Source of the DNA: an uncultured Verrucomicrobiae bacterium
GTDB taxonomy: Bacteria; Verrucomicrobiota; Verrucomicrobiia; Chthoniobacterales; UBA10450
Direction of reading: 5' to 3'
Assembly (NCBI GenBank): GCA_963815455.1
Contig: CAWFGO010000003.1
Span: 448,001-512,000, forward strand
Length of the DNA: 64,000 bases
Shown here: positions 14,731 to 44,594 of the stretch, piece by piece
Layout of the letters: every line of letters begins with the position of its first letter
How positions within the stretch are numbered: position 1 is the first letter of the stretch
The notes under the pieces: model-generated
What the model was told of the DNA's origin: nothing
Database searches by the model: none
What the model saw: the letters and a program-made list of their open reading frames with translations, nothing else
Made by a program: the position numbers and the translations under genes

Positions 14731-14802
14731 GCGCGATTAGCTCAGTGGTAGAGCGCTTGCTTCACACGCAAGAAGTCGCAGGTTCGAACCCTGCATCGCG
14801 CA
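14731..14802 (+). tRNA. tRNA-Val (CAC), CCA not encoded
   Basis: Cloverleaf GCGCGAT/ATCGCGC, D arm GCTC/GAGC, anticodon arm CTTGC-TTCACAC-GCAAG, T loop TTCGAAC. Confidence 0.95.
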
Positions 14803-14968
14803 CGCCCTTCCCCCGCTCGGAATTTGAAGCGCGCTCTAATTACAGAGCGGTCGCCGCGGCGACAAGTCGCTGGTTCGATCCCTGCATCGCGCACGCCCTT
14901 CCCCCGCTCGGAATTTGAAGCGCGCTCTAATTACGGAGCGGTCGCCGCGGCGACAAATCGCAGGTTCG
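14773..14968 (+). repeat. 91-bp tandem repeat built from the tRNA-Val 3' half + spacer + GTCGCCGCGGCGAC
   Basis: Units begin at 14773, 14864 and 14955 (partial); palindrome at 14850-14863 and 14941-14954. Confidence 0.9.
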
Positions 14969-14976
14969 GTGACGGT

Positions 14977-41384: not shown

Positions 41385-42242
41385 ATGATTATCTTTCATG
41401 ATCCGAAGTGCGCGGAGTATTCCGCGCCCGGGCATCCCGAGCGGCCGGGCCGGATTGTGCGAACCGTGCCGCTTCTGCAAAATCGACATCGCGATTGGGA
41501 ATGGAGGGAGCCCCGCGTGGCGACTGAGGAGGAACTCTTGCGCGCGCATTCACCGGAACAGATCGCGCGGATTAAGTTTGCCGCTCAGGATTTCGATGCC
41601 GATACGCCGGCGTATCCGAATATCTTCGATCACGCTTTGCGATCCGCCGGAGCGGCAGTCGAAACTGCTCACGTTGCGTTAAAGGGCGAACACGCTTTCA
41701 GTTTGATGCGGCCGCCCGGGCATCATGCAACCCGCGATCAGGCGATGGGATTCTGTTATTTCAGCAACATCGCCGTCGCCGCGCTGGACGCGTTGGCGAA
41801 TGGCGCCCAGCGGGTCGCCATTTGGGATTTCGACGCGCACCATGGCAACGGCACCGAAGCCATCGTCGCCCACAACGCGGCGATCGCATTCGCCTCCATT
41901 CATCAATTCCCGGCTTATCCAGGCACCGGCGCCAAATCGTTCGACAACATCGACAATTATCCTGTAGCCCCGGGCACACCCCGGGTCCAACATGTCGACG
42001 TTGCGGAACGGGCGCTGCAAAAGCTGCTGCGGTTCAAACCCGATCTCCTTCTCGTTTCCGCCGGGTTCGATGCCTACGCGCGCGACCCGTTGGTGCAAAT
42101 GACATTGGAAATTGAAGATTTCGCGCGGTTCGGTGAACGGCTCGCGAACGTCGGAACACCTGTGGCCGCGATTCTCGAAGGCGGCTACAGTGATGATCTT
42201 CCGGAATTGATCGACGCCTTTTTGACGAGTTGGGCTGGTTAG
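41385..42242 (+). CDS. Histone deacetylase family protein
   Basis: HPERPGR, RPPGHHA, DFDAHHGNGT, SAGFDA, LEGGY. Confidence 0.92.
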   Translation: MIIFHDPKCAEYSAPGHPERPGRIVRTVPLLQNRHRDWEWREPRVATEEELLRAHSPEQIARIKFAAQDFDADTPAYPNIFDHALRSAGAAVETAHVALKGEHAFSLMRPPGHHATRDQAMGFCYFSNIAVAALDALANGAQRVAIWDFDAHHGNGTEAIVAHNAAIAFASIHQFPAYPGTGAKSFDNIDNYPVAPGTPRVQHVDVAERALQKLLRFKPDLLLVSAGFDAYARDPLVQMTLEIEDFARFGERLANVGTPVAAILEGGYSDDLPELIDAFLTSWAG

Positions 42243-42264
42243 CGCACCTGCCAGCGCCCCTTCT

Positions 42265-42402
42265 GTCATCCCGATCCCGCAGTCGCGGGAGAGGGACCTC
42301 GCGGTCGTAGTCACCGCAGCGAGCACGCTGAAAGCATTGATCGTTTGGTTTCTCGCAAACGTTGCCTCCATTCGGGGGGTTCTTCGCTTCGCTCAGAATG
42401 AC
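42265..42402. repeat. GTCAT-type palindromic doublet with nested hairpin
   Basis: GTCATCCCGATCCCGCAGTCGCGGGAGAGGGACCTC...TTCTTCGCTTCGCTCAGAATGAC. Confidence 0.7.
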
Positions 42403-42409
42403 GGAGCGC

Positions 42410-42459
42410 CGGGCTGGCGGGATTTGAACCCACGACCTGTCGCCGCGGCGACCGTTCTA
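42410..42459 (-). repeat. Copy of the tRNA-Pro 3' half with the anticodon arm replaced by GTCGCCGCGGCGAC
   Basis: TAGAACG-GTCGCCGCGGCGAC-AGGTCGTGGGTTCAAATCCCGCCAGCCCG; 29 nt identical to the tRNA-Pro 3' end. Confidence 0.9.
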
Positions 42460-42581
42460 TCGACCAAGCTTAGCGACCGCCGCCGGAAACGCCCGGTCGG
42501 TTGCAACCATCGCTGACAAATTACCCGAACCGTCCGCCTGCCCAGCGGGGCGGCGGTTCGCTGCAGCGCTCTGGTTAGGCG
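42455..42581 (-). mobile_element. Integron attC-like recombination site
   Basis: CGCCTAAC (R'') 12 nt after the stop; GCAGCGAACCGCCGCC...GGCGGCGGTCGCTAAGC imperfect inverted repeat; degenerate R' GATAGAA. Confidence 0.75.
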
Positions 42582-42593
42582 TTACGGTGTCTC

Positions 42594-42989
42594 TCATCTG
42601 AACCCCTGAAAATCAAAATTGCCGAGGAAGCGCACGGGCGCAGTCGGATTAACGGTGACCCGCTTCGGGTCAAACTCAACCCAGTGAAACACTAGCATCG
42701 TGGACGCGGAAGCAATCCCCGCTGCCTCTGCCGCCGCCACAACAGCGTCTGCGTAGTCACGCCAGCACGAGAACTCCTCGACAAGCTCGCGAATCGAAAC
42801 TGGCTGCGGTGTAACCGCCATCTCCGGGCCTCGTCGGTCGGCGATGCGAAAACCAAAATCCCGCTCAAACCCTCGGTCAAGATTCATGTAGTCGTCTGCC
42901 TGCAACTCGTCGGTGAATGAGCCAATCCAAACGGCAACACGCCCCTGAACGGTGATGTCGTCTTGGTGGAATGATGGCTGAGTAGTCAC
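42594..42989 (-). CDS. Immunity protein (Imm22-like) cassette gene
   Basis: VAVWIGSF...DDY...FERDFG...RFLGNF pattern; GTG start; followed by attC. Confidence 0.55.
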   Translation of the reverse strand: MTTQPSFHQDDITVQGRVAVWIGSFTDELQADDYMNLDRGFERDFGFRIADRRGPEMAVTPQPVSIRELVEEFSCWRDYADAVVAAAEAAGIASASTMLVFHWVEFDPKRVTVNPTAPVRFLGNFDFQGFR

Positions 42990-43005
42990 AGCAACGTAGT
43001 AACGT

Positions 43006-43245
43006 CTATCTGTCCAATCTGTCGAGTTCATCCCGACCGCATCCCGTCTTGTAATAACGCTCCTTTCGCTCAGCATCCGTTCGGGTTGCGAAACTTTCCG
43101 TGTGCAAAACGATTCACGGGACACCATGCCGTGTTGCTTTTGAGTGACCAGCATTGTGGCGACGAACCCTCTCGTCCACGTCTTCGCATGATCCAACATA
43201 GCGCCGGCCGGTCTTCCTATTTCGCAAGACGTAGACATGAAACAT
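43006..43245 (-). pseudogene. GIY-YIG nuclease with an in-frame TGA at the conserved Trp (43114-43116)
   Basis: MFHVYVLRNRKTGRRYVGSCEDVDERVRRHNAGHSKATRHGVP*IVLHTESFATRTDAERKERYYKTGCGRDELDRLDR. Confidence 0.85.
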
Positions 43246-43274
43246 AGCGACAGTTGTTAGCCTCGCTTTTGACA

Positions 43275-43348
43275 TCGGGCTGGCGGGATTTGAACCCACG
43301 ACCTCTTGAACCCCATTCAAGCGTTCTACCAAGCTGAACTACAGCCCG
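43275..43348 (-). tRNA. tRNA-Pro (GGG), CCA not encoded
   Basis: CGGGCTG/CAGCCCG acceptor stem, anticodon arm CTTGA-ATGGGGT-TCAAG, T loop TTCAAAT. Confidence 0.95.
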
Positions 43349-43398
43349 CGAGTTGGTTGCGAACTATTCACTAAATCAAGAAGATCGCCAGTCTCCCT

Positions 43399-43465
43399 TG
43401 TAGCGGCGCTCTCCGAGCGTCGCGCTATTCGATCCAATTTGCGACGGTCGGAGACCGCCGCTACA
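43399..43465. repeat. GTAG REP doublet
   Basis: Same arms as 8352-8411. Confidence 0.85.
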
Positions 43466-43472
43466 GAGGAAG

Positions 43473-44594
43473 ATGTTTAGCGCCGGAATCGTTGGTTTGC
43501 CCAATGTCGGCAAGTCCACCTTGTTCAATGCCGTTACTCGCACGCATAAAGCGCCGGCGGAGAACTATCCCTTTTGCACGATTGAGCCCAATGTCGGCGT
43601 AGTTGTCGTGCCCGACCCGCGACTGGCGAAGCTCGGCGAGATGTCGCACTCGCAAAAAATTGTGCCGACGGCGATCGAGTTTGTCGATATTGCCGGTTTG
43701 GTCAAAGGCGCGAGTGCCGGTGAAGGACTCGGCAACCAATTCCTCAGCCACATTCGCGAAGTGGACGCGATCGTGCAGGTGGTGCGCTGCTTTGAAAGCG
43801 CGGATATTCATCATGTCGCCGGCACAATCGATCCGGTCCGCGACATCGAGGTGATCAACACCGAGCTGGTGCTGGCCGATTTGGCCGCGCTTCAAAAGCG
43901 GCAGCATCGAGTGCAAAAGGAAGTTCGAGCCGGCGAGAAGGGAGCGAAAATCGAGAGCGCGATCGTCGAGAAACTGTTGCCGCATCTGGACGCAGGAAAG
44001 CCGGCAATCACGCTCGATCTTTCGCCTGAAGAAAAAATTGTGGCGCGCGAATTCTTCCTGCTGACCTCAAAACCGACACTCTTCGCCTGCAACGTTGCAG
44101 AAGCAGATCTCGCTGTAGCCGCGGGCGCCGACCGCGGCAGCGCTGCGCAACATCTCGCCGCGGTGCAGGATTACGCGCGACATCATTTTGGAACTGAGGC
44201 TGTGGTGATCAGCGCCCAAATTGAGAGCGAACTGGTCGATCTCGGTGAAGAGGAAGCGCGCGAATATTTGCGCGGGCTCGGGGTCGAGGACAGCGGCGTC
44301 AACGCACTGATCCGGGCGGTCTATCACCTGCTTGGATTACGCACCTATCTTACGACCGGTGAAAAGGAAACGCGGGCCTGGACGATTCACGCGGGCGACA
44401 AGGCGCCAGCCGCGGCGGGGGTGATCCATTCCGATTTCGAACGCGGGTTCATCGCCGCGGAAACGATCCACTACGACGAGCTGGTCGCGTTGGGTTCGTT
44501 CGCTAAGGCCCGCGACGCCGGCAAACTTCGCATCGAAGGCAAGGATTACGAAGTCCGCGACGGCGACGTGATCACGTTCCGGTTTAACGTCTAA
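43473..44594 (+). CDS. ychF: Redox-regulated ATPase YchF
   Basis: [35 protein letters not shown] domain. Confidence 0.96.

Follow-up and report, generated by a model that had tools for sequence, protein, structure and literature searches.

Free-standing homing endonucleases of the SegB type typically carry a separate C-terminal DNA-binding domain, and the allele that such an enzyme has filled lacks an intact target; in tRNA-integrating islands, the duplicated 3′ half of the tRNA restores an intact gene. In IS200/IS605 elements and REP/RAYT systems, cutting and joining are done by an HUH tyrosine transposase. The GIY-YIG domain, on the other hand, is a hydrolytic nuclease, enzymes of this type leave a 3′-OH and do not religate, and joining must therefore come from the host. 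Slx1 and the UPF0213 (YhbQ-like) proteins are, to our knowledge, neither mobile nor tied to tRNA genes or to a fixed palindrome. Our literature searches found no paper joining them with either; Slx1 processes branched DNA, as PDB titles state. SegB of phage T4 is a GIY-YIG nuclease encoded among tRNA genes, which recognises a tRNA-gene motif and drives its own inheritance: it makes a double-strand cut in phage co-infection, with a 27-bp site at the T-loop motif (PMC2330249). In the Ssn system, SsnA binds its hairpin in single-stranded DNA and cuts a few nucleotides upstream; Chenal et al. (2025) propose an IS-like origin, and self-mobilisation of Ssn-like nucleases is a hypothesis of the same paper (PMC11893778).

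The element described here looks like an undescribed form of selfish DNA, moving among related soil-type bacteria without an integrase. Its layout of nuclease, palindrome and tRNA copy was not found in our literature searches, most subscription papers and the Ssn supplements lying outside their scope, and the passages of PMC3733652 on GTAG/CGTC repeats do not describe it. It was found in a window of 64,000 nucleotides (the whole stretch of DNA analysed) as a unit of ~290 bp that comprises a tRNA-Pro 3′ end, a GIY-YIG gene, the palindrome GTCGCCGCGGCGAC and a tRNA 3′ half. The features of this locus, and of a second one in the same window, are:

14731..14803, plus strand: tRNA-Val(CAC), intact, second target (ARAGORN, Rfam)
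14804..14894, plus strand: nuclease-less 91-bp unit made of spacer, AGAGCG, palindrome (14850-14863) and tRNA-Val 3′ half
14895..14969, plus strand: second tandem nuclease-less unit, with palindrome (14941-14954) and truncated 3′ half
42410..42438, minus strand: copy of the tRNA-Pro 3′ half (variable loop, T arm, acceptor strand), 29/29 identical
42439..42452, strand-neutral: palindrome GTCGCCGCGGCGAC, 14 bp, where the anticodon arm would stand
42453..42459, minus strand: inner flank TAGAACG, a 7-nt copy of the tRNA D-loop/D-stem end
42454..42580, minus strand: attC-like site of the cassette (sequence pattern)
42461..43009, minus strand: integron gene cassette, 549 bp, a secondary insertion at G/AT, outside the element proper
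42594..42989, minus strand: cassette ORF, Imm22/DUF4284-like, immunity-type (PF14112), putative GTG start
43006..43245, minus strand: GIY-YIG nuclease gene, single-domain, SLX1/UPF0213-like, 79 codons (PF01541)
43114-43116: TGA replacing the Trp44 codon in the nuclease gene
43275..43348, minus strand: tRNA-Pro(GGG), intact host site (ARAGORN, Rfam)
43305-43321, minus strand: anticodon arm of tRNA-Pro(GGG), standard positions 27-43

The tRNA-Pro gene and the TAGAACG-palindrome-3′ half copy are present as the original prediction had described them, and the GIY-YIG gene does start 30 nt past the tRNA, with an ATG at 43245 and a PF01541 match (E 1.7e-7, profile search). The gene, however, is interrupted by the TGA at Trp44, which 104 of 105 intact relatives retain as Trp, and the window copy of the element is decaying, the TGA being a mutation or an assembly error. 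As for the proposed anticodon-less tRNA copy, the arm is indeed swapped for the palindrome, but the 5′ part of the tRNA up to the D loop is missing as well, so that it falls short of a complete tRNA mimic; it represents a DNA end rather than a working mimic. That the nuclease stop codon becomes the TAG of TAGAACG once the cassette is removed, and that gene, palindrome and tRNA 3′ half belong together as a unit, is shown by the uninterrupted orthologues of four other genomes (G013, G009, G011 and G021), in all of which the copy's TAG serves as the nuclease stop.

As DNA, the palindrome has a stem of 5 bp and a loop of 4 nt. Its exact sequence occurs three times in the window (at 14850, 14941 and 42439); a looser pattern, GTCGCCNNGGCGAC with one mismatch allowed, matches the same three window sites only, against 0.39 expected, and 0/100 shuffled windows reach three matches. 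The 3.6-Mb genome holds 12 palindromes (backwards control, 0), 9 of which lie away from tRNA genes. A promoter and terminator scan of 42200-43500 gave nothing above chance, and none of the sequencing runs searched had half the stretch, their contigs spanning only cassette, attC and tRNA. REP-like hairpin repeats lie on either side of the locus, at 42266-42409 and 43400-43465, and one of them has a different mini-palindrome in its variable slot.

The piece between the two GATAG motifs, treated at first as a plain cassette, is an integron cassette: a 549-bp layout of a single ORF and then an attC-like site, with the boundary at the core G. We called this site by what we take to be the core features of attC. 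Fourteen more attC-like sites in the genome show the same pattern; since the folded attC strand shows no extra stability over shuffles (z −0.84), the call rests on sequence pattern and context. The right core reads G/ATAG, compared with GTTAG at the 14 other sites, and its ATAG is supplied by the target, while one base deviates at the left junction (ATAGAC instead of TTAGAC). The ORF matches PF14112 with an E of 6e-5, under the curated cut-off, the genome has three matches over cut-off to the integron integrase profile TIGR02249, and the ORF-attC piece is present in other sequencing runs without nuclease or tRNA. Where cassettes insert outside integrons, the consensus target is GWT, with which G/AT agrees (bioRxiv 2022.09.11.507474). 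Elsewhere in this genome, attC arrays accompany several integron integrase genes (C1:1713000-1719400, C1:1482000-1496200 and C3:784700-787500).

To avoid selecting on the palindrome, loci in relatives were picked by protein alone, as the best 80 of 326 confirmed metagenome matches. Among these best 80 of 326, tRNA-Pro lies upstream in 69 of the 71 loci with enough upstream DNA, and the predicted adjacency of palindrome and GIY-YIG gene is borne out by 64 of 66 distinct genes, the palindrome being exact in 55 of 63 scored, with no compensatory pairs seen. The association of the palindrome with a tRNA 3′ half likewise extends to relatives: palindrome plus T-loop was found in 92 of 301 family genomes (including the unpublished G151 and G283, plus a few chance matches), the backwards control giving 0. 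Scanning the collection with the same pattern gave at least 119 stretches, mostly chance matches in GC-rich genomes, from which only loci with tRNA-like flanks were used; among the matches listed are Chthoniobacterales, other Verrucomicrobiota, Planctomycetota, one Elusimicrobia and one Dehalococcoidia record.

The junctions are base-exact. When the offsets were not fixed in advance, 153 of 155 3′ junctions lay at +10 from the anticodon and 38 of 38 5′ junctions at −7, i.e. the palindrome replaces exactly the 17-nt anticodon arm at 191 of the 193 junctions scored. The targets at 161 loci (163 less two spurious tRNA calls) are Pro GGG (71), TGG (48) and CGG (29), Val CAC (12) and Arg GCG (1). 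The replaced anticodon arms differ widely among targets and have in common the form C27...G43 preceded by CG, a foot present in 7 of the 49 ARAGORN tRNA calls of the genome that holds the window. Extended to CG/C...G/ARGYCG, the rule selects only the three Pro tRNAs and Val(CAC) among these 49 calls, which are the targets seen in this genome, and fits 180 of 191 palindrome copies; having been drawn from these same loci, it is descriptive.

At tRNA-Val, the predicted palindromes (14850 and 14941) are present, but both copies show slight decay, the second being truncated, and both are nuclease-less; a nuclease gene is absent at all 12 Val(CAC) loci. Downstream copies generally consist of ~7-8 nt of tRNA, the palindrome and the whole 3′ half, and upstream (mirror) copies of the whole 5′ half, the palindrome and ~6-7 nt, followed mostly by ~60 nt of promoter-like DNA, which is a near-identical local duplicate in several loci and diverged in others. 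Inner flank lengths peak at 6-8 nt in both copy types. In short downstream units the start of the spacer is joined to the end of a nuclease gene, that of the resident gene in L314 and that of a different (foreign) gene in L208. Arrays comprise 2-3 gene units, or up to 5 upstream units, and plain unequal crossing-over can be an alternative origin of tandem units. The suggestion that the product is a tRNA-like RNA was not supported: only 2 of 191 distinct copies beside a tRNA have a long tRNA match on both sides of the palindrome, one (L301) being a full-length but mutated tRNA-Val copy and the other ending in the T arm. At five loci from several genera (L280, L281, L290, L292 and L316), a palindrome-3′ half copy stands head to head with an inverted intact tRNA-Val(CAC), and in L418 (G079:C4) tRNA-Pro copies have a second palindrome in the T loop too.

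A second nuclease clade (C1:174053 in the window's own genome) sits at tRNA-Met(CAT) in 28 of its 30 best loci and is then followed by (G)CCCCGAAAGCNTTCGGGG(T) in 27 of these 30, with the same arm swap and stop fusion as in the Pro clade; three of the second-clade loci come from the unpublished G015, G171 and G188. More remote homologues (41-51% identical), 14 in all, come from other families of the phylum; five of them have TCCCGA...TCGGGA hairpins, which replace the tRNA-Pro arm, and others have hairpins in the T loop or anticodon loop.

The palindrome is not tRNA-specific and is found off tRNAs replacing short hairpins in other repeats. Among 61 genomes searched for both palindrome and nuclease, kin not being independent, the mean number of palindromes is 8.6 in the 18 with the Pro-type nuclease clade vs 1.3 in the 43 others, and the former falls to 6.9 after a rough hand subtraction of tRNA-linked copies. 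CG stands at the foot of 55 of 76 off-tRNA copies (a few of these 76 are misclassified tRNA copies), and 16 of the 76 have flanks that recur in their own genome, mostly around a short C...G hairpin. The palindrome occupies slots of repeats that are otherwise filled by short C...G hairpins. The variable slots of these repeats hold many different hairpins, which fits a swap in either direction.

The nuclease family (79-81 aa) consists of a single GIY-YIG domain, with PF01541 alone. Residues Y5, Y16, R26, H30 and E62 are kept in 104-105 of 105 intact genes, among which dN/dS is ~0.12 (pairs with dS of 0.5-2, pairs not independent); on this comparison of sequences the gene is under purifying selection. 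Intact copies make up 115 of 160, the other 45 not being intact. A model of an intact orthologue (pLDDT 80.7) predicts a GIY-YIG core plus one helix and no further domain. Its closest sequence match is 1ywl (E 4e-6) and its closest predicted fold matches are 1zg2, 6seh, 4xm5 and 7cq4, which are UPF0213 proteins and Slx1, so that Slx1/UPF0213 is nearest in both respects. No NCBIfam profile matches over cut-off, TIGR01453 spanning 37 of 215 positions, under cut-off; in viral contigs, 0 of 9 candidate stretches were confirmed as relatives. Three other small GIY-YIG genes of the same genome may be mentioned here. A second copy of the element (L359, C3:553038-553434), at tRNA-Pro(CGG), has an open ORF in which conserved positions are substituted, and its palindrome contains a 3-nt duplication. 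L358 (C1:532630-532910) is a frameshifted small GIY-YIG ORF inside a 23S rRNA gene (rRNA identity by eye), bounded by complementary stems like an intervening sequence, and L354 (C5:75220-75950) is a small GIY-YIG gene ~130 nt behind a tmRNA-like gene, with a hairpin-rich spacer between the two.

How does the element compare with the systems outlined above? Membership in the Ssn family is defined by sequence, as cd10448 or a BLAST E<1e-10 to SsnA; here two stand-ins from the window's own genome were compared instead, which we presume to be Ssn-type from their motifs and flanking repeats. The nuclease has no BLAST match to either at E<10, which on sequence points to non-membership in the family. 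Consistent with the Ssn size criterion of a single-domain GIY-YIG protein of <150 aa, ours has 79-81 aa. The SRM consensus was found within 500 bp of 0/106 loci, and the element's palindrome does not match it; the two stand-in genes, which would have served as positive control, have no match either. In overall design the likeness is close, Ssn with its NTS/SRM being likewise a small single-domain GIY-YIG gene beside its own, genome-dispersed hairpin, whereas the position of our palindrome in tRNA copies, exact to the base, differs from a system in whose main text the word 'tRNA' does not occur (PMC11893778). By analogy, the element most likely works like Ssn/NTS.

In outcome it resembles a homing endonuclease such as SegB, the abstract on which describes no palindrome-substituted tRNA copies (PMC2330249). 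Unlike segB, its gene is chromosomal, encodes 80 aa and is tied to a fixed hairpin at the anticodon arm. GIY-YIG catalytic residues kept intact under selection are a homing-type feature that it shares family-wide, though the window copy is broken. The separate C-terminal DNA-binding domain of homing endonucleases is absent from the predicted structure, and, if the tRNA gene is the target, the intact tRNA beside the cassette in 69 of 71 loci (best 80 of 326) is unlike homing. Hairpin ends, dispersed non-autonomous repeats and a short tag at the hairpin foot are likewise found in IS200/IS605 and REP/RAYT (PMC11893778, PMC3733652). With tRNA islands the element has the duplicated 3′ half in common; its inner flank, palindrome and mirror upstream copies are extra. 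The original prediction of an integrase-free unit was correct for the loci covered: no tyrosine or serine integrase lies inside the duplicated ends in the window or in orthologous and protein-selected loci, in which only the nuclease gene separates tRNA and copy.

Empty and filled tRNA loci could be compared across genomes, as had been proposed. The orthologous tRNA-Pro(GGG) locus is filled in 5 of 18 genomes (the window's own, G013, G009, G011 and G021, the last with two tandem units) and empty in 13, including the same-genus G001 and two unpublished genomes, G008 and G015. Between loci L212 and L220, the stretch that begins at the tRNA and ends with the 3′ copy shows 99% identity, the flanks 67% upstream and 81% downstream; L203 and L213 are 97% identical with unrelated flanks. 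L001 and L202 present the reverse case, the flanks being 91-95% identical and the cassette 82% and inverted. The best transfer pairs are metagenome contigs and could therefore be chimeric across 50-74-bp repeats. The 3′ half of the copy is the local allele in 90 of 135, and nuclease lineages largely follow isoacceptor. The gene tree needs 10 isoacceptor changes, but it is weak and a monophyletic CGG group remains compatible with the data (p-AU 0.35), so that frequent target switching is unsupported. Synonymous distances of nuclease and ychF show no positive correlation over 325 pairs (rho −0.11), most of which are near saturation, so that only close discordant pairs are informative. Taken with the recurrence at several tRNA genes, which was upheld, these comparisons support a patchy, tandemly amplified and horizontally shared unit; the element is real, recurrent and probably mobile. 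Among relatives, tRNA-Pro(GGG) stands in either orientation with respect to ychF (window 43275-43473; L001, L202, L007, L009), 10 vs 16 of 26 filled loci having one or the other arrangement, both of which also exist among empty loci; the flip is seen even between records with 91-95% identical flanks.

The reading that we favour, and hold to be rather likely, is that of a selfish integrase-free mini-element, made of an SLX1-like GIY-YIG gene and its own hairpin, that spreads by nick-primed hairpin swapping, a chemistry that we infer. Comparison of loci shows what would be its products, namely a hairpin in place of the anticodon arm in a partial tRNA duplicate, with the intact tRNA kept, as well as a unit that comes and goes at orthologous sites, forms tandem repeats, appears to move between species and has nuclease-less derivatives. 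At the outset, a donor strand (short flank-palindrome-long flank) would anneal to the complementary strand of a tRNA gene, and the palindrome and the anticodon arm of the target would loop out to give a four-way junction, which is also the minimum-energy fold of the donor/target heteroduplex (as expected by construction). The nuclease, held by its own palindrome, much as SsnA is by NTS, could then nick at the foot of the target hairpin, on its 5′ side on either strand, the predicted sites being 26/27 on the top strand and 43/44 on the bottom strand. The freed 3′ end would copy the donor and re-anneal to the host, the event being completed by host polymerase, recombinase and ligase. A bottom-strand event would produce tRNA-gene-palindrome-3′ half, or a short unit if copying ends early; a top-strand event would produce 5′ half-palindrome-7 nt-promoter-tRNA. 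Only products retaining one intact tRNA would survive, and swaps at other C...G hairpins after CG would disperse the palindrome genome-wide. At a filled locus the target stays intact and may be open to re-cutting, of which tandem arrays are a possible result. More tentatively, and with rather more doubt than conviction, one may think of mobile DNA of a new class: an 80-aa junction nuclease would use the palindrome-substituted copy as a DNA guide, which would pair with the target tRNA gene in a four-way junction and allow a base-exact swap of hairpins without integrase, transposase or reverse transcriptase. Each nuclease clade having its own hairpin, targeting would be reprogrammable through the flanks.

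Other explanations have to be considered. Classical homing would involve a double-strand cut in the tRNA gene, with the palindrome doing no more than abolish the site in the extra copy, as immunity, and the element spreading through ordinary break repair; horizontal sharing bounded by tRNA homology, patchy loci and purifying selection would all follow, and SegB, a GIY-YIG enzyme recognising a tRNA gene motif, is a precedent (PMC2330249). Yet immunity needs no fixed sequence, while 55 of 63 palindromes are exact (best 80 of 326 protein matches) and the identical 14-mer is present in Planctomycetota and Elusimicrobia records among the matches listed. Since, moreover, the intact target remains in cis, the 80-aa protein is without a separate DNA-binding domain, the target anticodon arms vary widely and the palindrome spreads off tRNA genes too, we consider homing of this kind improbable, although it deserves to be kept in mind. 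One could also think of a passive relic, in which tandem tRNA duplications picked up a chance REP-like hairpin and the nuclease, as a passenger or an enzyme of host repair, was passed on vertically and lost in places. The presence of the palindrome in variable slots of other repeats, nuclease lineages that largely track isoacceptor, copies whose 3′ half is the local allele (90/135) and the 45 of 160 gene copies that are not intact agree with such a history, but base-exact junctions, a stop codon fused to the tRNA copy, one palindrome per nuclease clade and gene/flank discordance in both directions do not, and make it unlikely.

Least credible of all, and contradicted by the loci compared, is the remnant of an integrase-driven tRNA island (attL/attR) that has lost its integrase: the duplicate of the tRNA 3′ half downstream is, as generally known, the usual signature of islands, but in orthologous and protein-selected loci tRNA and copy are separated by nothing more than the ~250-bp nuclease gene, and the palindrome, the 7-8-nt inner flank and the upstream mirror copies would be left unexplained. 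A role at the RNA level has slightly less in its favour than the relic. The transcript of the copy would mimic a tRNA, serving as decoy, antitoxin or processing signal, or would be reverse-copied into tRNA genes, Penelope-style, and indeed in most loci 7-39 nt separate the gene from the tRNA ahead of it, with which it is probably co-transcribed, 5′-truncated short units resemble retro-copies and the swap preserves a 5-bp stem. Against it, the copies, of which 2 of 191 are long on both sides, are too incomplete to fold into a cloverleaf, promoter DNA that is not transcribed is duplicated in upstream units, the window's own genome (90% complete) has no RVT_1 match, and the related Ssn enzyme is described as inactive on RNA (PMC11893778).

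The work contributes the exact pairing of palindrome and clade inside a single family, a cassette that is near-identical although its flanks diverge, the target rule, the hairpin swaps off tRNAs and the integron identity of the interruption. If hairpin swapping is the correct explanation, it would assign a role to the tiny GIY-YIG genes of bacteria, an abundant but uncharacterised group, would explain common tRNA pseudogene debris and short dispersed palindromes, and would add an integrase-free route of tRNA-targeted mobility. It also offers exact substrates (palindrome, flanks, predicted nick positions) for testing self-mobilisation by Ssn-like nucleases and, if flank-guided, a candidate for a very small programmable nickase.

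Hairpins beside other GIY-YIG homologues and tRNA copies were also noted. Four loci (L193, L195, L198 and L199) have ~40%-identical homologues bounded by TCACCCCGTGAGATA-like inverted repeats, with flanks that look, by eye, like integron-integrase coding sequence; in L187-L192, other ~40% homologues are flanked by a hairpin of their own (CGCGTAAAA...TCACGCG type), away from tRNA genes. In the genome that holds the window, two degenerate tRNA-Asn copies with TCCCGA...CGG(G)A hairpins (L353; C3:259905 and 261908) lie 1-3 kb behind tRNA-Asn, and partial copies of tRNA-Cys form two 145-bp units with other hairpin repeats at C3:521040-521330. Partial tRNA copies with other hairpins are also present for Arg(CCT) and Gln(CTG), at C1:619000-619080 and C3:739130-739220, and for Leu(GAG) and Ala(TGC), at C2:267453 and C5:219927.
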